DNA of 61,604 nucleotides from a virus (IMGVR_UViG_3300043773_000773:1-61604); one strand, 5' to 3'; positions 5,522 through 13,767 are shown, counted from the first letter of the stretch. A program made the numbers and translations. The notes: a model not told the origin generated them from the sequence alone.

Positions 5522-5790
5522 TCGTCAATCTCCGAGAAAGAGATTGCCGTCACCAGCGTCACGATGTACTGGAAAAGCTCCTGGCCCTGCGAGCTAAGCA
5601 GCACGGCCTCCAGCCGCTCCAGCAACTCATCGTCGATTGGGGTCTGGGTTTTGGTAGCGACAAACCGCATGAGTTTGAGCGCCCCGTCGACCCTCTCTTT
5701 CGCCGTGCTGGCGGCGGAAATCTCGGACAGCAGCGACAATGCTGGCGCCCACTCGACCAGTTGCTTTACCTTTTGCGCGACGGTTGCCAT
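5518..5790 (-). CDS. Hypothetical lysis-module protein
   Basis: 90 aa, TQTPIDDELL motif, GAGG upstream. Confidence 0.65.
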   Translation of the reverse strand: MATVAQKVKQLVEWAPALSLLSEISAASTAKERVDGALKLMRFVATKTQTPIDDELLERLEAVLLSSQGQELFQYIVTLVTAISFSEIDE

Positions 5791-6166
5791 GCTGCCTCGC
5801 CTCCTGCCGACGGACCCAGTCCACCAACAGATTTATGTCCCGCTCCGGGCGACACAGAGACAGCAGCTTCTGCCGCACTAGGTGAGGGTCGCGGCCCAAA
5901 TCCAGGCAGGTCTGGGCGAATGAGAAGTCGCCTCCCGTTCCCTCGAACACCCACCTGTACGCGGCCACCTGCCTCCGGAGGATTTCCCACTCCTTCCGGT
6001 TCGACGGACACATCTGCGCCACCCCCAATCGGCGGTGCCGGGCGCACAACTCCCGCAGGTGATAGTGCGTTCTAACGAGAACCTCTGCACAAAACCTCCT
6101 CCAGCCAGCTTCGCACTCCTCGATGATGTTCTCGTCGTCGTAGTCCATTACGGCGACGGCGATCAT
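5627..6166 (-). CDS. Hypothetical protein
   Basis: 179 aa ORF coupled to the upstream stop; 3' end overlaps 5518..5790. Confidence 0.55.
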   Translation of the reverse strand: MIAVAVMDYDDENIIEECEAGWRRFCAEVLVRTHYHLRELCARHRRLGVAQMCPSNRKEWEILRRQVAAYRWVFEGTGGDFSFAQTCLDLGRDPHLVRQKLLSLCRPERDINLLVDWVRRQEARQHGNRRAKGKATGRVGASIVAAVRDFRRQHGEREGRRGAQTHAVCRYQNPDPNRR

Positions 6167-6525
6167 TATTGTCTCGGTGCCTCGTAAAAGCCGGACCTAA
6201 GGGTTCCCTCGTTGAGTTCCGGCCAGACCTCAAGAGAGTGGATCGCCGCCATGACGTTCCACGCAGCGTGTCCAAGATGATCCTCAGCGCGGTCGCCCCC
6301 GAGAAACAGGTACAGGTGGCGGATCGCGTGGTTCAGCATGTCGTTCGCAGGCATGCCCTTCTCCCAGTTGTAGTCGCCGTACTTGGCCGCACCTTCGGCG
6401 CACGCCGCCGCCACAGCCGCCAGTCCGATCGGGGTAATCAGGTCGTAGCGCGTTGCCTCCGCATCGCTCGACCGCACAGCGCCACTCGAATACTTCACGG
6501 CTTTTTCCTCAGTGAACTTAATCAT
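6166..6525 (-). CDS. dATP/dGTP diphosphohydrolase domain protein (DUF5664-like)
   Basis: SGAVR...RYDLI...GAAKYGDYNWEKG...HAIRHL...DHLGHAAWN signature. Confidence 0.85.
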   Translation of the reverse strand: MIKFTEEKAVKYSSGAVRSSDAEATRYDLITPIGLAAVAAACAEGAAKYGDYNWEKGMPANDMLNHAIRHLYLFLGGDRAEDHLGHAAWNVMAAIHSLEVWPELNEGTLRSGFYEAPRQ

Positions 6526-7037
6526 CACTCCAACTCCTTGTAGCGGTTCAGGAACAACATCTTTGCTTGGTGCCAACGCAGCGCACTGACAGGTCCGCTC
6601 ATCGGCTGTACGTCAATCCCCCAGTCGTGATCGCATGGGATGAGGTCGCGCTTCTCTGCCATGAGCGCGCGGTTGTCTGCCAGCTTCACCTCGTCGGGGA
6701 TGGGCCAGCAGAGATAGAAGGCTTTGGCGATCTCCTGCTGCACGTGCTGCTCAAGCTCCTTGTACTCCGGCAGCATCGCCTTCAGGGGCCGGGCAACATC
6801 CCCCAGATACGCCTCGCTTGCGTCGTGCAGCAAGCCCCACATCGCATGCTCGGGGCGCACGAGACGGCTCACCATGACGCTGTGCTGCGCCACCGAATAC
6901 GGCACCTTGCTGTGGCCGGTGAAGCGATTGACGATCGAAAGGGAGTGGGCTATGTCGTCGATCGACACATCTCTCGCTGCGAACCCACGAAGGTCGATCA
7001 TCCTTCCGGAGAACGTCTGCATGGTGGTGTCGTTCAT
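6525..7037 (-). CDS. HD-domain deoxynucleotidase, YfdR-like
   Basis: DIAHSLS..NRFTGH..YSVAQHS..LLHDASEAYLGD signature. Confidence 0.88.
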   Translation of the reverse strand: MNDTTMQTFSGRMIDLRGFAARDVSIDDIAHSLSIVNRFTGHSKVPYSVAQHSVMVSRLVRPEHAMWGLLHDASEAYLGDVARPLKAMLPEYKELEQHVQQEIAKAFYLCWPIPDEVKLADNRALMAEKRDLIPCDHDWGIDVQPMSGPVSALRWHQAKMLFLNRYKELE

Positions 7038-7077
7038 CGCTCGTCCTCCTTGAGTTTCGCTATCGTGAAGGAGCCCA

Positions 7078-7548
7078 TCAAGAATGCGCCTTCCAAATCC
7101 GCCGCGCCATATCGCCCATCGGCCGCAGCGCAGTTCGTTGGATGTAGTGGTTCACGATCCCGTAGCCGAAGTCCTTTGTCGGCGCCGCCATGAGCCTCTG
7201 CCGCCACTCCCATCCGACAAGAGACGCAGCGCCGTCTTCGCCGTACTCGGCTAGGACGTAGATGTCGGCTGGCATCTTCTTCCCGGCCTCGTGAATCAGG
7301 TTGCCAGCATTGCGCGCCGTCTTTACGTCAACCGTGTATAGCAACGGCACGACGAAGTCGATTCCCTTGTCACCGCCGGGACGCTCCGAGAAGTCGGGGC
7401 ACTGGCCGCAGAACATCCCGAACGCCACCTCGCCGGCAAGGCCGACATTCTCGTAGCCGTCGGATAGGGGACGCGACGAGGCGTGGCCCGCGTGAATCGC
7501 AGCACGCCGCTCGGCGATGTTCACGATGAGGGCGTTGTGGGTCATCAC
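7078..7548 (-). CDS. Putative PD-(D/E)XK-fold nuclease
   Basis: GLAGEVAF...GGDKGID...DVKT...DIYVL...GW. Confidence 0.6.
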   Translation of the reverse strand: MMTHNALIVNIAERRAAIHAGHASSRPLSDGYENVGLAGEVAFGMFCGQCPDFSERPGGDKGIDFVVPLLYTVDVKTARNAGNLIHEAGKKMPADIYVLAEYGEDGAASLVGWEWRQRLMAAPTKDFGYGIVNHYIQRTALRPMGDMARRIWKAHS

Positions 7549-8012
7549 TATTCCTCCTTGAGGTTCGCTATGTCGAGCAGCCGATCCTTCGGGACGAAGA
7601 ACGCTGCCCCATAACTGCCGTAGTTCTGTCGGTACTCGGGCCGCTTGGCGTCCTTGCCTCGCACCCAGCCATGTACGCGGAAGTCGTTTGGCCCGCCAGT
7701 CACCAGCACGAACGCATCGTCGTCTCTATCGCTGTCGCGCACGATGAGGTCGTAGCCATGACGGGACCGCGTCCGTATCTGAATGCTCTCGCCTATGTCG
7801 CCGCCAGCCTTGAAGGTGTTCACGCTGCCGTTCCAGTAGCGGTTAGTGGCCTTCGCGAACGCACACTCGCCAAGCGCACCCAGAATGTGAATGCTCCACT
7901 CGTCGTTGATCGGGAGCCTGTTCTGGCATCCCTTGCGCAGCGCCTCGACATTGCGAGACACGCCGACGAGGGCGGCCCGGCTCACCTCGAACCACTCCAG
8001 CGCTACGTTCAT
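7548..8012 (-). CDS. Putative PD-(D/E)XK-fold protein, distant paralogue of 7078..7548
   Basis: GALGECAF...GGDIG..QIRT...DAFVLV...GW. Confidence 0.6.
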   Translation of the reverse strand: MNVALEWFEVSRAALVGVSRNVEALRKGCQNRLPINDEWSIHILGALGECAFAKATNRYWNGSVNTFKAGGDIGESIQIRTRSRHGYDLIVRDSDRDDDAFVLVTGGPNDFRVHGWVRGKDAKRPEYRQNYGSYGAAFFVPKDRLLDIANLKEE

Positions 8013-8302
8013 GCTTCCTCCATCCGCCGGTATCCCAGCGCCCACAGGATGCGACTTAGCTCCGTCCCCTGCTGCGCGACATGCTCCTCGCTCAGCGTCG
8101 GGTTTGCGGCATGCAGATACTCATGAATCTCCGTATCGAGCCTTGCCCTGCCGGTAAGGCGCTCGTCAATCAGAACTTTCTTCTCCAAGTTAGGGCTGCG
8201 GTTGTCGGGCCACTGCGCCCAGCCAATGGCCCTTCCCTTGAGGCGGGCGTATCGCCACAGCCACCGGACGCCGTTGATGCGAAACGAGTGGTTCTCTGGC
8301 AT
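8009..8302 (-). CDS. Small HExxH metallopeptidase-like protein
   Basis: Start MPENHSF coupled to the upstream stop; DTEIHEYLHA and SEEHV. Confidence 0.65.
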   Translation of the reverse strand: MPENHSFRINGVRWLWRYARLKGRAIGWAQWPDNRSPNLEKKVLIDERLTGRARLDTEIHEYLHAANPTLSEEHVAQQGTELSRILWALGYRRMEEA

Positions 8303-9000
8303 CACATCGCTCCTTGCGCCTGCTGGACGAACCGCTTGATGTCTTCGAGCCTGAAGGTCACGAGCCAGTCGCTGTCGTTCTTGCGGTGCAATACCACTGG
8401 GGCCAGCTCGCCGCACTGCTCCTTCGACTTCTCCATCACTGCCGTCAGATTCAGCGCCTGAACACGCTTCACTTCGAGCCAGAGGTGCGGCGTGCCAGGG
8501 CTGATGAGGTCGCTGGCGGACTCTGTTCCCGAGTGCTGCTGGCTCCTTCTGGCGTGGGCGTTCGGCATGTGCCGGTTCCACTCGGCCGCAGCCTCCAGTT
8601 CCCCGCGCTTTCCCTTCTGTCGTGAGTTGATCGCCATCTTGGTTAGCTCCGGTGGGACTCCGTTCTTCCGCCGCCACATGAACACACGAAACGGGTAGCG
8701 CTGTGGGCCGTAGCCGAGATGCCTCTTGTGACGTAGCGAAGCCAGGAACTCAGGGTCGTAAAAGGCGTCGTCCACTTCGCGCTTGGCCGTGAGGCACATG
8801 CCCTTCGTGAGGTCGTGCTTGCCACCGAAGTGAAGCCCGTCGTGGCACCACCGACAGAGCCGCAACAGGTTCCGCCTGTCGTGCGAGCGCCCAGCGCCCT
8901 GCTGCAAGTGGTGGATGTGCAGGTCCGAGCGCGACCAGCACACGGCGCAGAACTGGTATTCCTGCGCGAAGGCCGATAGTTCCTGGCGCCCATCGCTCAC
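8302..9000 (-). CDS. HNH endonuclease fused to Hjc-like Holliday junction resolvase
   Basis: CAVC..HIHH..NLLRLCRWCH, then SRQKGKRGE..DL..LEVKR. Confidence 0.75.
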   Translation of the reverse strand: MSDGRQELSAFAQEYQFCAVCWSRSDLHIHHLQQGAGRSHDRRNLLRLCRWCHDGLHFGGKHDLTKGMCLTAKREVDDAFYDPEFLASLRHKRHLGYGPQRYPFRVFMWRRKNGVPPELTKMAINSRQKGKRGELEAAAEWNRHMPNAHARRSQQHSGTESASDLISPGTPHLWLEVKRVQALNLTAVMEKSKEQCGELAPVVLHRKNDSDWLVTFRLEDIKRFVQQAQGAM

Positions 9001-9269
9001 GACTCCCCTCTCGACACGTGGTCAATGGCGCGGCGGATCGCAGTGTCGAACGCCTCGACCTGCTCCGCAGTCTCGAAGTCGATGACGTACCGAAACATCC
9101 GCTCGCCAGTAGTCATGTTCGTCACCGCTTCGCGGCGGTGCCTTCTGAACGCAACGACGGACGCCACCGACCGGGCGCACTCGGCAAGCTCATGCTCGTC
9201 CTTGAGCAGCGACCCCAGCGCCTTTGCAATGAACGATCCCATCGCCCTCTCCTTTTCCTCACCCGCCAT
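8997..9269 (-). CDS. Hypothetical protein
   Basis: 90 aa, coupled within the operon. Confidence 0.6.
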   Translation of the reverse strand: MAGEEKERAMGSFIAKALGSLLKDEHELAECARSVASVVAFRRHRREAVTNMTTGERMFRYVIDFETAEQVEAFDTAIRRAIDHVSRGES

Positions 9270-9528
9270 GTGTCTTGAGCCAGCTAGCGGCCACCGCGAA
9301 CCAGAACGAGAGCAACGTCAGGTCTTCCGAAGATGTGATTGACACCGTCCCGTCCGTGTCGATCACGACAGCGGACTGGTGATCCTGCCTGTACCACTCC
9401 CTGTCGGACTCCTCCTCGTCGCCGACCACCCGGCGCAGCGTCTCGACGCCCTCGCTTGGGCGGCACAGGGCGGCAAGGCGCCTGCCGGTTGGGTCGGTGT
9501 ATCGAAGAAGCACAAGGTCGCGTGGCAT
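9259..9528 (-). CDS. Hypothetical protein
   Basis: Likely start MPRDLVLL at 9528 within ORF 9259..9711. Confidence 0.55.
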   Translation of the reverse strand: MPRDLVLLRYTDPTGRRLAALCRPSEGVETLRRVVGDEEESDREWYRQDHQSAVVIDTDGTVSITSSEDLTLLSFWFAVAASWLKTHGG

Positions 9529-9561
9529 GGTTTGTCTGGTGTGTGTCCGTACCGCATCCGT

Positions 9562-9738
9562 GCTGAGGAAGGCCCGACGCCCTGTCTCAGCTACCCCACG
9601 AGGGGTTGCGACTCCAGCCTTATATGGCCCTTCCTCAGCTAACCACCGGGACGTTGCGTTGCTCGCAGGATCAAGTACCTGCCCGTTGCCCGGATTTCGC
9701 GCTGGAGTCACACCGCCGCCCGATCAAGTTCAAGGCGG
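9562..9738 (-). ncRNA. Candidate structured ncRNA or ssDNA element with pseudoknot
   Basis: Crossing helices 9701-9709/9610-9618 and 9629-9639/9562-9572, plus nested hairpins. Confidence 0.55.
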
Positions 9739-9791
9739 TTTGTTTAGGCTCGACCGTTTTGATTTCTGAAACGCTGACCGGCACGAGAAGA

Positions 9792-10193
9792 TCAACAGCG
9801 TTGTGGCTTGATGTCGTGCAGCACGCCCATGTCCGACCACTTGCCAGCCTCGCTCCAGTTGAGCCAGACGCGGCCTGCGGTCGCAGACACGGGAACGCAC
9901 ATGACGACGTTTGTTCGGATGTTGACGGCGACAAAGGCGTCAACGTGGCGAGGGCTGTAGCGAGCGACCTTCGAGCTGCCCCTGCCGATGCGGATGCGGC
10001 GCTTGTTGGAAGCGCGGGATGCGCTCGCCTTGACTTGGATGCGCCAGTGACGGCGATCCGCGAAGGCCAGCAGGTCGTAGCCGTCGTCGACAATTGGAAC
10101 CGCAACGTGGTAGCCAGCCCGCAAGAGCCGCTCCACCGCGATCGCCACGCCGATTTCTGCAATAACCTTCCCATCAAGCACTCCATTGCTCAT
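9792..10193 (-). CDS. PD-(D/E)XK endonuclease, PDDEXK_5/I-Ssp6803I-like
   Basis: GYHVAVP..DDGYDLL..RIQVKA..Y...VDAFVAV. Confidence 0.75.
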   Translation of the reverse strand: MSNGVLDGKVIAEIGVAIAVERLLRAGYHVAVPIVDDGYDLLAFADRRHWRIQVKASASRASNKRRIRIGRGSSKVARYSPRHVDAFVAVNIRTNVVMCVPVSATAGRVWLNWSEAGKWSDMGVLHDIKPQRC

Positions 10194-10201
10194 GCAGCCT
10201 C

Positions 10202-11755
10202 CTAGCTGGCGGCGTGCTGTCCCTTCTGCCGCCGCCCAAGCTCCGTCCGCACGGCCGTCTTGAATGGCGAGTCCTTCTTGGTCGACTCCATGACCCAAGA
10301 CAGGTAGCCCTCCGGGATGGACTCCAGCGGCTGGCCCTTGTACTTGCCGTACAGCATCCGCCAGCCACGACGCTTCGGGCCTTCCGGCTCGGAGAACAGG
10401 TCGCGGGTGCTGTGATCGAACGTGACTCCGACAACGAGACGCTTCCGCTTCTCGATCATCTCTGCGGCCTTAGCCTCAAGCTCGGCAAGCTCGAAGGCGT
10501 CCGCTTCCTTGATCGCATCGACTGCGGCGGTACCCTCCATCGACAGCTTGTTCCGCATCATCTCCCTGCGGGACGCAGCCTTGCGGCTCTTGGCGTCGAG
10601 AACGTCAAGCGCCGACAGAAGCTGGTGGCTGCGACTTGAATCAGTGATGTCGAAGAGGTTGAACGTCGGCTTGGGCGAGGTGCGAATTGCCTCAAGCCGC
10701 TCGTCACGGCTCATTTCGGGGTGGATGATGTTGCGCCACGCCCGAGTGCCACGCCCGAGACGCTGCTCATAGCGCGATAGGCTCTTGGTCGGAGCCGCCA
10801 TGTAGATATTCATCAACTCTGGGTGGTCCCAGCCGTACCCCAAGATGCCGACGTTCACGATGATCTTGGATTCGCCCGACACGAAGGCGTCCATGTTGGC
10901 CTTCCGCTCGACCGGGTTCTGCATGCCGTAGACGAGGCTAGGCGAAGCGCCGTACCGCTGGAGAATCTCGACCAGAAGCTTCGCCTGACGCACGTTCGAG
11001 GCGTACACGACAGACGGCATCTGCTTGAACGTGGAAAGCACGAGGCTCGAGACTTCTTGGGCGAAGTGTTCCGCCGCCAGCACCGCAGCAAGCTGCGTCT
11101 TGTTCCACTCGCCAGACACCTCGTCCACCATCGTGAGGTCGAACGACTTCGCCTCCGACAGGAAGCACGTTGGGCCGACGAGATAGCCGTCGTTGATGCC
11201 CTCCATCAGCGAGTACACAACCTGCGGGCGGGGCCAGTACCGGAGCGCCTTTCCCTTGCCCTTGTATGGCGTTGCCGAGAAGCCGACGATCGTGGCTCCG
11301 CGATCCTCGTACCACCTCAGCATCTCCTCCATGCGTGGAGTCATGCCTACGTGGCACTCATCGACCAGCACCAGCGACACTCGCTCGTAGGCGCGGGCCT
11401 TGTACCGACCATTGGAGAGCAGGCTGTCGCGAGAGCCGACGATGACACGGCTGCGCAGCCCCTCGATGCTCTCGGCGAAGTTCCCGCCCTGCTCGATGTC
11501 GCAGGACTCGCCAAGCCGAAGCTCCAGGCGGTCGCGGTTCTGACGCATCAGGTCGACCAGCGGCACGATCGACAGCGGGTAGCGGGCAATGCGGCACAGT
11601 TCCGCAATGATCTCCGTCTTGCCGCTGCCTACTGGCTGGCACACAACGACGCGCTTCTCGCCTCGCTTGGCGGCTGCGCACACGCCCTCGATGGCACTGC
11701 GCTGGTAGTCACGAAGGGCCGCACGGACGGCCGAGCGAATCTGCTGACGGCTCAT
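10202..11755 (-). CDS. Superfamily 2 DNA helicase with C-terminal YGKYKG (DUF3820-like) domain
   Basis: PVGSGKT, DECH, SATP, QRLGRGTR; C-terminal YGKYKGQPLESIPEGYLSW. Confidence 0.92.
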   Translation of the reverse strand: MSRQQIRSAVRAALRDYQRSAIEGVCAAAKRGEKRVVVCQPVGSGKTEIIAELCRIARYPLSIVPLVDLMRQNRDRLELRLGESCDIEQGGNFAESIEGLRSRVIVGSRDSLLSNGRYKARAYERVSLVLVDECHVGMTPRMEEMLRWYEDRGATIVGFSATPYKGKGKALRYWPRPQVVYSLMEGINDGYLVGPTCFLSEAKSFDLTMVDEVSGEWNKTQLAAVLAAEHFAQEVSSLVLSTFKQMPSVVYASNVRQAKLLVEILQRYGASPSLVYGMQNPVERKANMDAFVSGESKIIVNVGILGYGWDHPELMNIYMAAPTKSLSRYEQRLGRGTRAWRNIIHPEMSRDERLEAIRTSPKPTFNLFDITDSSRSHQLLSALDVLDAKSRKAASRREMMRNKLSMEGTAAVDAIKEADAFELAELEAKAAEMIEKRKRLVVGVTFDHSTRDLFSEPEGPKRRGWRMLYGKYKGQPLESIPEGYLSWVMESTKKDSPFKTAVRTELGRRQKGQHAAS

Positions 11756-12097: not shown

Positions 12098-12790
12098 CTA
12101 GGACGCCATCGCCGGTTGCTTCTTCTCTGCTTCCGGCTTCTTCTTCGCGAGCTTCGTCGCTGCATCGCCGCCAACCAGACGAAGCCGGGTTGCGGCTGCG
12201 TCTGAAAGCTGGCTGCTCGACACGCCACGAGCCACCTGATCCATCACGGCCGCGATCGTCTCGGCGTCCTGGGCGGCGCGAATCTTCGCCGCCAGAGCCT
12301 TCTCAATGCGGGCCTCGTCGTTGACGGCGGCGCTCGCAGCAGACTTCTCTGCCTGCTCGCCGTCGTCGTCGTCATCTGCTGCGATCCCGGCGATGGCGCA
12401 GAGCGCGATCCGCTTCAGGTAGGTCGCCGTCTTGGCAAGCTCCTGCGGCGGGATGCGTCCCGGCATCGGCAGGTAGGACCGCTCGAACTGCCCGCTGGAG
12501 TGACGCACCGTCGTGACGAGGTGGATCGTGCCGTCCTCGCCGTACGGATGGAACGTCTGGCTCACCGACAGGCCGTTCGTGGAGTACGCCGTGCGGATGC
12601 AGTCGAAGCACGACGCGAGGTCGGCGTAGTCAGGAACCGGCTTGCCGTCCTTGCCCTTCTTGGCGAAGTGCGACACCTTGTTCCGGACGACGTTCTGCAA
12701 CTGGCCGAACGCCTTTGCCATAGCGTCGGAAAGCTCGCTCACGTTTTCGCTGCATGCGTTCCACACAGACATGTCAATCACCTTGCTCAT
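12098..12790 (-). CDS. erf: ERF family single-strand annealing protein
   Basis: YADL...HSSGQ...TYLKRIALCAIAGIAADDDDDG signature. Confidence 0.88.
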   Translation of the reverse strand: MSKVIDMSVWNACSENVSELSDAMAKAFGQLQNVVRNKVSHFAKKGKDGKPVPDYADLASCFDCIRTAYSTNGLSVSQTFHPYGEDGTIHLVTTVRHSSGQFERSYLPMPGRIPPQELAKTATYLKRIALCAIAGIAADDDDDGEQAEKSAASAAVNDEARIEKALAAKIRAAQDAETIAAVMDQVARGVSSSQLSDAAATRLRLVGGDAATKLAKKKPEAEKKQPAMAS

Positions 12791-13767
12791 CTCATCCTCC
12801 CCAGGACATGCGCCGGAAACTGAAGTTCAACAACCTCGCCGTGCGTATCCGGCAACCACCAGTCGAGGCTTTCACGAAGACGAAGATCAGCCAGCGCCCG
12901 ATCCATGAGCCGCTGCCCTTCGGCAACGACGGCGTCTGGCAGCGTCACGACTTGGCAGTCGTGCGGCAGTGATGTGCTGATGACGATGAAGCGGAGGGGC
13001 GCTGGCTCCATGCCGCACGCCTCCATCCCCCTGCGATACCACGCATCTTGCAGGTGGTACTTGAAGTCAACGACGGACTTCCAGAACCCGGAGAGGATGT
13101 CTGCCTCTCGCGTGGTCTTGAGGTCGAGCGCCAAGCCGTCCGAAGTGATCGCGTCGAAGCGGCACTTGAGTCGGTCGCCATTGGCTTCCTCCCAGTACAC
13201 GCCCAACTCGTGATCCGCGATGCGGGAGATGAGTTCTGCTGCGGCTGGGTGGTTCTTGATCGCAGCCACCTCCGCGACGATCTGCGCCCGCTCCTTCGGG
13301 GAGACAATGACCGAACCGGCCGGAGCCTCGTTTTTGGCCCATTTCTCTGCGTCTTTGCCAACAAGCCCGGTGGCTGTTAGGGTTTCTGACGGAGGAACGA
13401 CCAGCGATTCAAGGAAGTCGTCGCCCAGTTCCAGCCATGAGTGAAGCAGCGTGCCGTGATCGGTGGCGCTGCTTGAGAACGGTGGCAGGGTCTTGGCTAT
13501 GTACCGCTGGTAGTACAGGACAGGAGAGTCAAGGAGCGTTTTGGCTCGACTGCACGACCTGTGCGTCTCGTTAGCGTGATAGTCGGCGTTCGCTTCTCCA
13601 CGCCGAATATCGACCCCTACATATTCAGCGTACGAACCAAAGCTAGTGTTCGTACATGCTGGTTGTAGGGGCGAAGGCGAAGCGATTGTGCCGGTCGAAT
13701 CGGCCCGACCAACGGTGCCGCTTCCATTTGCACCCTCGCGGCCCACCGTAGCTGGGGAAAAAAACAT
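12787..13767 (-). CDS. RecE/exonuclease VIII-like PD-(D/E)XK nuclease (DUF3799-like)
   Basis: DYHA..GTLLH..KCRFD..DLKTT..YHLQDAWY; start uncertain (13767 ATG or 13746 GTG). Confidence 0.85.
   Translation of the reverse strand: MFFSPATVGREGANGSGTVGRADSTGTIASPSPLQPACTNTSFGSYAEYVGVDIRRGEANADYHANETHRSCSRAKTLLDSPVLYYQRYIAKTLPPFSSSATDHGTLLHSWLELGDDFLESLVVPPSETLTATGLVGKDAEKWAKNEAPAGSVIVSPKERAQIVAEVAAIKNHPAAAELISRIADHELGVYWEEANGDRLKCRFDAITSDGLALDLKTTREADILSGFWKSVVDFKYHLQDAWYRRGMEACGMEPAPLRFIVISTSLPHDCQVVTLPDAVVAEGQRLMDRALADLRLRESLDWWLPDTHGEVVELQFPAHVLGRMR
13630..13655. promoter_or_regulatory. Perfect 8-bp inverted repeat GTACGAAC-N10-GTTCGTAC (operator or recombination site candidate)
   Basis: Seen directly, about 110 bp upstream of the recombinase start. 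Confidence 0.4.

Follow-up and report, generated by a model that had tools for sequence, protein, structure and literature searches.

A pseudoknotted RNA family of uncultured phages and integrated elements, often beside replication and recombination genes

Results

A conserved RNA-type structure between two phage genes

The viral genome IMGVR_UViG_3300043773_000773:1-61604, referred to here as the window (the whole stretch of DNA analysed, 61,604 nucleotides (nt) long, with 63% G+C and a CheckV completeness of 97%), carries on its minus strand, between positions 9787 and 9541, an element of ~250 nt that we regard with high confidence as a conserved, multiply pseudoknotted structure of RNA type. 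The element occupies the gap between a PD-(D/E)XK nuclease gene and the next open reading frame (ORF), and its folded strand is the one transcribed with an operon of exonuclease, erf, helicase and nuclease genes. Almost certainly it is one member of a large family, outside Rfam, that is found in uncultured phages and in integrated elements or prophages of several bacterial phyla. An original prediction, made from the sequence by itself, had described a non-coding, pseudoknotted and strand-specific element at 9562-9738; this description is borne out, the setting being a replication/recombination operon, and the element is absent from Rfam 15. All of the predicted stems lie on the minus strand where they had been placed. 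The flagged region does hold the element, but the true extent is larger, from ~9787 to 9541, and takes in a 5' hairpin (H0), a helix formed by strands L and L', and a 3' motif (Table 1).

The minimum free energy (MFE) of positions 9528-9795 (268 nt) is -98.8 kcal/mol, against -93.9 +/- 5.1 kcal/mol for shuffled sequences (z -0.97), and the opposite strand gives a z of -1.56. By the folding energy of one sequence, the structure is no better than chance, and support for the element is for this reason comparative. A query with the nuclease protein retrieved 35 IMG/VR loci, 16 of which (12 distinct) keep the gap at ~68-80% DNA identity, as well as the adjoining coding sequence; the gap is also kept, at ~75% DNA identity, in a later set of 26 distinct sequences. 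RNAalifold, applied to 13 sequences, yielded 62 pairs, 14 of them with compensatory changes. The 26 distinct window-lineage sequences were aligned (alignment A3) and scored with the full pseudoknotted structure: 95.4% of cells are paired, and 24 of the 49 pairs have changed on both sides. On four of five measures (cells paired, pairs with changes on both sides, cells with such changes, and covariation score), none of 500 shuffles of this alignment equalled the observed value; on the fifth, further pair types, 10 of 500 did. Sliding the partner strands by 1-3 columns reduced pairing to 31-45%.

The individual helices in this alignment include the long-range helix A-A' (11 pairs, 7 changed on both sides, 96.9% of cells paired), B-B' (8 pairs, 3 changed on both sides, 95.6%), H0 (8 pairs, 5 changed on both sides, 93.3%) and a peripheral hairpin (5 pairs, 2 changed on both sides, 91.8%). 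Hairpin H1 shows GC to AU, CG to UA and CG to GC changes among relatives. The comparison of homologous gaps that had been proposed as a check therefore reveals many compensatory changes, and the predicted strand order A-B-A'-B' is maintained by such changes as a pseudoknot. It is this comparison with relatives, and not any one sequence, that indicates that the element is real. The unpaired strands are also constrained: CGAAAU, ahead of helix P, is identical in all 26 sequences and is replaced by UUUU in other subfamilies, and AUAUAAG is nearly invariant across the window lineage, with ACUAAG in other type 1 members. A repeat search of the window reported the long inverted repeats 9602-9618/9701-9717 (82%) and 9562-9575/9626-9639 (93%). 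The sequence ACTTGATC, said to recur at the tips of two hairpins, does so in the window (9664-9687/9717-9740), but the exact recurrence is peculiar to it: the H1 loop, which carries ACUUGAUC in the window only, varies among relatives, and the second loop alone is conserved family-wide, as U-R-N-U-N-G-A-U.

As predicted, G-U pairs favour the minus strand. The helices contain 67 G-U cells versus 15 A-C cells, and because the former outnumber the latter, the minus (sense) strand is taken to be the folded one. In four of five neighbourhoods in which both strands were analysed, the element runs in the direction of its annotated flanking genes. The region is not conserved as coding sequence: the frame of ORF 9259..9711 (GTG start) is closed ahead of the core in 23 of 25 relatives, stops occur in all three frames in 26 of 26 sequences, indels in the alignment are not multiples of three, and the long ORF has no Pfam or PHROG match.

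A scan with the 4227 covariance models of Rfam 15, judged by gathering threshold or significant E-value, matched no family to the element. Only noise (CRISPR-DR8, snoU82P) appeared in window positions 9000-10400 and 9525-9800 at E-values up to 10, and no match appeared in 20 genome loci, 9 of them with true members, at E-values up to 0.1. The CRISPR-DR8 hit, on the lineage-specific hairpin, scored 14.8 bits against a gathering threshold of 39 (E 1.9-9.9) and on this score was rejected as a CRISPR repeat or repeat mimic; the element holds only two repeat copies, imperfect and 75% alike. A tRNA or tmRNA was likewise rejected, with no gene found by ARAGORN across the whole window.

Table 1. Parts of the element, neighbouring features of the window, and the sister element
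Feature	Position	Strand	Description
Hairpin H0 (5')	9749..9787	minus	CUCG-U-GCCG with CGGU-CGAG; conserved A-rich loop (..AGAAAUCAAAAC); RNAalifold
Hairpin H1	9716..9738	minus	CCGCC(U)...(G)GGCGG; CCGCC 9738-9734 with GGCGG 9720-9716; lineage-specific
Strand A	9701..9713	minus	GUGUGACUCCAGC; 5' side of long-range helix A-A'
Junction	9694..9700	minus	GCGAAAU; 5' of helix P
Helix P, 5' strand	9689..9693	minus	CCGGG; pairs with 9650-9646
Junction	9683..9688	minus	CAACGG; fixed by every search pattern
Core hairpin	9665..9682	minus	stem GCAGG 9682-9678/CCUGC 9669-9665, loop UACUUGAU; A9676 pairs with U9651
Strand L	9655..9658	minus	CGCA; inside P, pairs outside P with 9556-9553 (second pseudoknot)
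Junction	9651..9654	minus	ACGU; family form ACGY
Helix P, 3' strand	9646..9650	minus	CCCGG
Strand B	9626..9639	minus	GCUGAGGAAGG(GCC), GCUGAGGAAGG at 9639-9629; 5' side of pseudoknot helix B-B'
Junction	9619..9625	minus	AUAUAAG; ahead of A'; family form A-Y-UAAG
Strand A'	9607..9618	minus	GCUGGAGUCGCA
Peripheral hairpin	9593..9606	minus	ACCCC-UCGU-GGGGU
Strand B2	9576..9591	minus	partial copy of B (direct repeat, 32 nt, 75%); inner part pairs with 5' of B'
Strand B'	9562..9575	minus	(GGG)CCUUCCUCAGC, CCUUCCUCAGC at 9572-9562
3' motif	9557..9561	minus	A-C-GGA; A-G-GGA in other subfamilies; C9560 pairs with G9644
Strand L'	9553..9556	minus	UGCG
Gap from nuclease stop to next ATG	263 nt		holds the RNA element
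Promoter-like site	14085-14057	minus	TTGACA-17-TATAGT, 11/12; just upstream of exonuclease gene
Exonuclease VIII-like gene	12787-13767	minus	
Erf gene	12098-12790	minus	
DEAD/ResIII helicase gene	10202-11755	minus	
PD-(D/E)XK nuclease gene	9792-10298	minus	stop TGA 9794-9792
Next gene, 89-amino-acid ORF	ATG 9526..9528	minus	start 25 nt 3' of L'; no Pfam or PHROG match
90-amino-acid ORF, then HNH/RusA-like ORF	3' of the 89-amino-acid ORF	minus	
Sister element	L012-L031, just after nuclease stop (e.g. L028:3447-3780); also L283-L311		other conserved non-coding element of sister phages

A knotted three-way junction shared by the family

We are confident that the core of the family is a three-way junction of helices P (CCGGG/CCCGG), L-L' and B-B', with the conserved junction strands CAACGG, ACGY and GGA. 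From 5' to 3', the parts are A, GAAAU (or UUUU), the P 5' strand, CAACGG, the core hairpin, a linker, L, ACGY, the P 3' strand, U-S, 2-4 nt, B, A-Y-UAAG, A', variable hairpins, B', A-S'-GGA, L' and a tail. Two architectures occur: in type 1, as in the window, A lies directly 5' of GAAAU, and type 2 has a small hairpin and UUUU at this place. Strand L is inside P and its partner outside, and B is inside A-A' and its partner outside; L-L' crosses P, and A-A' crosses B-B'. Because L and B pair outside P and A-A', the RNA is knotted at least twice around the junction.

The core hairpin has 5 base pairs (bp) family-wide, and the linker after it sometimes has an inserted hairpin. Among 67 distinct sequences, 4 of the 5 stem pairs have changed on both sides (97% paired), and the R at loop position 2 is always complementary to the Y of ACGY (AU 48, GC 19, none unpaired); a second set of 60 distinct metagenome sequences gave AU 48 and GC 12. 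It is an isolated pair that spans across the stem of the hairpin, which marks the fold as tertiary. Helix P was fixed by the first search patterns; another scan fixed the hairpin instead, leaving P free. Among 48 loci in which P was free, 37 had the canonical helix, 7 had CCAGG/CCUGG, and CGAGG/CCUCG and CCGAG/CUCGG occurred once each, making nine loci with compensated variants.

The crossing helices are likewise maintained across subfamilies. B-B' forms a contiguous helix of at least 6 bp at a fixed place in 61 of 75 distinct sequences, as against 17% of mismatched controls in which B and B' were taken from different members, and it does so with 43 different helix sequences. Pairing of L with L' over at least 4 bp is found in 62 of 68 (controls 25%) and over at least 6 bp in 36 of 68 (controls 4.7%); the window's CGCA/UGCG is replaced in relatives by CGCU/AGCG, UCGCU/AGCGA or CCACU/AGUGG. 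Differing A and A' sequences were seen at the same place in other subfamilies, without a count. The motif A-S'-GGA is directly 3' of B' throughout the family, and its S' pairs with S as G-C in the window lineage and as C-G elsewhere (31 C-G, 2 G-C and 2 C-C in the metagenome set), a swap that may represent a single evolutionary event.

Two further pairings, plausible by eye, were rejected: the 5' hairpin with the 3' tail as a closing helix, and the 5' loop (GUCAGC) with B2 (GCUGAC). Both failed in some relatives, L057 and L049 among them. At L163:1501-1540, the covariance model R1 (32 bits) matched a minimal variant of 40 nt in which P and ACGU are kept and a short loop replaces the core hairpin; it represents either a decayed member or a small motif in its own right. 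In four phage contigs of Acidobacteria type (L059, L063, L095 and L096), the conserved region reaches ~120-330 nt upstream of the core (..AUGGCAGAGUCGAGAAAUCGAUUCGGGGAGUUCGCGGCAC..), and the RNA of this subfamily may be 300-400 nt long with a promoter of its own. A candidate promoter, TTGAYT-17-AAYAMT, noted by eye ahead of the RNA in four phage loci of this type, was set aside, having gone unreported by a consensus scan of three of the four (L096, L063 and L059).

Distribution of the family

A search of IMG/VR for the invariant core 16-mer gave 59 stretches, of which four (L039, L045, L056 and L058) are plain chance matches, and nhmmer searches of IMG/VR gave ~50 full-length relatives and 19 that share the core only. 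A two-part pattern, applied to bacteria and archaea with one genome per species, retrieved 55 stretches, ~31 of them true members and ~24 chance matches in high-G+C DNA; L117, L119 and L146 were left out of the analysed set by hand. Members in genomes are labelled Acidobacteriota (Terracidiphilus, Granulicella and others), Planctomycetota, Verrucomicrobiae, Geobacter, Myxococcales, Clostridia, Paceibacterota and Moraniibacteriota, and one is from a cultured strain, Paludisphaera soli JC670 (Planctomycetota). In metagenomes, the two-part pattern found at least 119 stretches, with the core hairpin present in 63 of 80 that were fetched. The window DNA itself has 20 holders, from 14 lake or freshwater metagenome studies.

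The distribution is sporadic: the RNA was found in 2 of 151 Acidobacteriota genomes (search centre included), and each of five genomes searched holds a single copy. When the 62-nt core was compared by blastn with the sequences of 50,697 phage and 72,556 plasmid records, only chance-level matches (E 1-5) appeared, and a 1.1-kb region had no match among the phage records. A second match of model R1 in the window, at 698-812 (E 0.15), consists of CCGGGC...CCCGGUC with a 90-nt gap and was taken as chance.

Genomic context

In the window lineage, the helicase, or the helicase and nuclease, is upstream, and small ORFs without a known family are downstream. Other members have as neighbours genes for Cro- or Xis-like helix-turn-helix proteins, ParB-like proteins, RecT or Erf, or a DnaJ-domain protein, with integrases nearby; such contexts belong to the early and replication regions of phage genomes and of integrated elements. 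Across the subfamilies, no common protein family was found by all-versus-all BLAST of flanking ORFs, Pfam, PHROGs or helicase tblastn, neighbours being shared only within the window lineage. A helicase tblastn match lies less than 1.5 kb from the element in 39 of 114 loci (L039-L152), and where a helicase-family ORF is on the same strand (29 distinct loci) it is upstream of the element in 28. Downstream ORFs fall into unrelated clusters, and 62 of 67 scanned have no Pfam family at E-values up to 0.001. The ORF downstream of the element, taken from the first ATG or GTG that yields at least 70 amino acids, begins 2-56 nt past the 3' motif within the window lineage, and relatives of the window have a GGAG/GAGG-type ribosome site ahead of the ATG homologous to 9528. 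Elsewhere in the family, a start codon with its ribosome site lies only tens of nt beyond the element, for example that of erf in L087.

Sister phages that carry the same nuclease lack the RNA (0 of 19 loci matched by model R1). At the same site, between the PD-(D/E)XK nuclease gene and small ORFs, they have a different, highly conserved non-coding element of ~300 nt. Long hairpins are present in it, and inspection by eye showed one or more long-range helices with compensation (GCGAC/GUCGC versus GAGUC/GACUC). This sister element has no Rfam match, and a 21-mer from it occurs in 29 IMG/VR stretches (17 distinct). The unrelated element at the same site suggests that the genome position itself calls for a structured RNA.

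All genes in the neighbourhood of the element are on the minus strand. The promoter-like site upstream of the exonuclease gene is the best sigma-70-like match in the first 18 kb of the window, and the sole 11/12 site on the minus strand there; it lies ~4.3 kb upstream of the element and is probably the promoter of the operon that carries the RNA. No terminator-like site was found in the window between the element and the next gene.

Discussion

Our best guess at a function, offered tentatively and short of an even chance, is that the RNA is a cis-acting module of a polycistronic early operon mRNA. This reading is drawn from three observations: the closing strands end near the next start codon or ribosome site, no terminator parts the element from the next gene, and an unrelated RNA occupies the same slot in sister phages. 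Under such a mechanism, the last 30-40 nt (B', A-S'-GGA, L' and tail) would zip the fold shut, ending 2-56 nt before the next start codon, and folding, possibly aided by a conserved host factor or ligand at the junction, would set the fate of the downstream message. Possible outputs include translation start, processing or stability, and read-through.

Several points weigh against this proposal. Downstream genes are unrelated across the family, most of them without a known family, and closeness to a start codon is expected of any intergenic element in compact phage genomes. The core keeps its sequence from phylum to phylum, and in intricacy the fold matches ribozymes or ribonucleoprotein (RNP) RNAs; at the same time, CAACGG was fixed by all search patterns, so that its conservation is not independent and the invariance of CAACGGG/ACGY is partly forced by the patterns. 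No RNA sequencing run is among the listed holders of the window DNA. Some members also have contexts that fit the proposal poorly. In one Terracidiphilus genome (L161; G002:C15, ~5600-9600), a gap of 700 nt separating a gene with a Shedu SduA_C domain from uvrB holds the RNA in antisense orientation, with no nearby same-strand gene, and a second metagenome-assembled genome (L131) has near-identical flanks. In the viral contig L089 (1188-1345, minus strand), tRNA-Arg(CCU) is within ~20 nt of the element and is followed by tRNA-Leu(UAA) on the same strand, and in L096 a terminator-like hairpin precedes the RNA on the same strand.

Further features of these and other loci may be recorded here. 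The vicinity of the Terracidiphilus element holds a TumE-like toxin gene and an HVO_A0114-like gene, and looks like a defence-island setting and not an obvious prophage. A Gp157-like gene is ~1 kb upstream of the RNA in L089. In an Acidobacteria genome (L110:1130-1205), a tRNA-Phe gene is ~300 nt upstream of the RNA, and the element may be at the edge of an island integrated at that tRNA gene.

The closest alternative, in our judgement only a little less probable, is a self-contained RNA, freed from the operon transcript or having a promoter of its own, that acts as a new ribozyme or as a binder diverting a conserved host protein; the compact junction would then serve for catalysis or binding. 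A core kept across many phyla with no conserved protein neighbour, a single copy in each of the five genomes searched, three crossing helices with a lone tertiary pair, and members that lack a same-strand downstream gene or, in one case, adjoin tRNA genes would all fit such an RNA, as would the rarity among Acidobacteriota genomes, a sporadic spread typical of mobile RNAs. Small self-cleaving ribozymes, GOLLD and ROOL have a comparable distribution. Yet most members abut a ribosome site and start codon, in the window no terminator stands between the element and the next gene, and no Rfam ribozyme model matches. A bolder proposal, which we hold to be unlikely, is that the family is the first known example of a class of large RNAs, catalytic or sensing, that belong to mobile elements; its doubly or triply knotted junction CAACGG/ACGY/GGA would be the active site at which early phage mRNAs process themselves, or a pocket for a universal host signal. 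If this were true, the class would be common to phages from Acidobacteriota to candidate phyla, and the unrelated RNA of the sister phages may do the same job.

Among known systems, the family appears in habit most like GOLLD and ROOL. These are large, intricately folded RNAs, mainly of phages and prophages, that are sporadic, have no obligatory protein neighbour and sometimes lie beside tRNA genes; their function was not known at discovery. The window family is similarly phage- or prophage-borne, sporadic and, in L089, beside tRNA genes. However, GOLLD and ROOL are both Rfam families whose models do not score here, and the window RNA is smaller (~250-300 nt) and has a core of its own, composed of P, CAACGGG, the hairpin, ACGY and [C/G]GGA.

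A second likeness is to group I introns. The order A, inner domain, B, A', hairpin, B' corresponds to P3, P4-P6, P7, P3', P8, P7', and an A-rich strand (GAAAU) runs into a G+C-rich inner helix; this P3-P7 type of strand order is present in the element and backed by covariation. The lariat-capping ribozyme, like the element, is found just 5' of an ORF. A group I intron or GIR1 was nevertheless rejected: no Rfam model matches at E-values up to 10, and no gene is interrupted, the upstream ORF having its own stop (TGA 9794-9792) and the downstream ORF its own ATG at 9528. The L-L' pseudoknot and the loop-junction pair are not known as group I features, and the resemblance is one of topology only. 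RNase P RNA was also rejected, as no bacterial, archaeal or type-T model matches and helix P encloses only one hairpin and the linker; a likeness of GAAAUCCGGGC and ACGUCCCGGU to RNase P helix P4 has no model support, and the topology differs.

With put of phage HK022 and EAR, the element has in common that these are gene-independent, sense-strand RNA elements of early or long operons, and a conserved partner such as RNA polymerase could explain a core that crosses phyla. The put sites differ in consisting of two simple stem-loops, ~70 nt in all and close to the promoter, whereas the window element is ~250 nt and stands ~4.3 kb away. Antitermination of the put or EAR type was rejected, since the element is not promoter-proximal and terminator-like sites downstream are no commoner than in shuffles (9 in 18 kb, versus 12.0 +/- 3.8). 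With regard to an expression platform, many members have a ribosome site close to where the 3' closing strands stop, and in the window no terminator was found between the element and the next gene. The unrelated downstream genes argue against a classical metabolite riboswitch; the downstream ORFs are in unrelated clusters, and all contexts seen are like those of phages or integrated elements.

A different form of cis regulation would be a two-state switch in the window lineage, in which B' pairs either with B, as the pseudoknot, or with B2, as a local hairpin, and toggles downstream expression. B and B2 form a 32-nt direct repeat, 75% alike, both begin with GCUGA and can pair with UCAGC of B', the single-sequence MFE picks the B2-B' hairpin, and the inner part of that hairpin (columns 258-261/268-271) has compensatory GC to CG changes in three sequences. 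The original prediction had allowed for two mutually exclusive folds, but at the discriminating position B' follows B and not B2: column 274 of B' is paired with column 201 of B in 26 of 26 sequences (GC 21, AU 5), and with column 253 of B2 in only 10 of 25, with 15 unpaired. B2 is also absent from other subfamilies, B-B' being family-wide, and the small inner hairpin of B2 with the 5' part of B' is compatible with the knot, as it can coexist with the outer B-B' helix. The aligned relatives thus favour a knot over a switch, and we consider the switch improbable.

Slightly more doubtful still is an element acting at the level of DNA or replication, that is, a folded single-strand initiation site or a ColE1-like primer template. 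Like ColE1 RNA II and single-strand origins, the element is a strand-specific structured nucleic acid that adjoins replication genes; it is next to a helicase gene, as many origins are, helicase matches recur near or upstream of the element in the loci counted above, neighbours are often ParB-like, RecT or Erf, and folded single strands would give the same covariation. Many members, however, have no helicase within 1.5 kb and contexts vary widely, and an antisense partner, origin features and a fixed link to replication genes were not seen across the family. G-U (G-T) pairs are common (67 cells), and the lone loop-junction pair, together with the three helices that cross, speaks for a compactly folded RNA. 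Inspection of the element showed neither iterons nor an A+T-rich tract, and the core is conserved across phyla, unlike origins bound by phage-specific initiators. That there is no functional RNA, and that the region is the 5' part of a longer protein (ORF 9259..9711) or a set of chance inverted repeats in G+C-rich DNA, has negligible probability, for although no stop interrupts the ORF in the window or in the relatives L043 and L094, and single-sequence folding energy is not above shuffles, the frame is closed in the other relatives with stops in every frame, indels break the triplet phase, compensatory changes are present in every helix, and the long ORF matches neither Pfam nor PHROG.

A literature search with the core as text matched only unrelated primers. 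One published catalogue (PMC10690425) lists over 10,000 candidate structured viral RNAs; no such motif is mentioned in the portions of it searched, nor does the core occur in six supplement files searched, and the family may be present there unnamed. A 2026 preprint on noncoding clusters (10.64898/2026.10.21.760802) describes, in the part available, a PhoH2-linked RNA and not this family. The family is absent from Rfam 15, and the literature searched, which includes only part of the PMC10690425 supplements, gave no description of it.

Large RNAs with intricate conserved tertiary folds are rare, and most of those investigated have turned out to be ribozymes, riboswitches or components of RNPs. 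The present family shows covariation in every helix, is abundant in soil and freshwater metagenomes and spans at least six phylum-level groups. It is positioned in the early, replication or recombination part of phage genomes, where functions of host takeover and counter-defence cluster; that sister phages fill the same site with another conserved RNA, unrelated to this one, indicates a function linked to the position. Because the carrier Paludisphaera soli JC670 is cultured, mapping of RNA ends and genetics are feasible.

Two observations concern the remainder of the window. The predicted scarcity of long gaps was checked crudely: a greedy ORF map gave 15 ORF-free stretches of at least 120 nt, but in this G+C-rich genome spurious ORFs cover the element gap too. 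Downstream of the two small ORFs, an ORF at 8302-9000 (minus strand) has an HNH motif (Pfam) at its N-terminus and a RusA-like resolvase (PHROG 244) at its C-terminus, an unusual fusion if the ORF call is correct.

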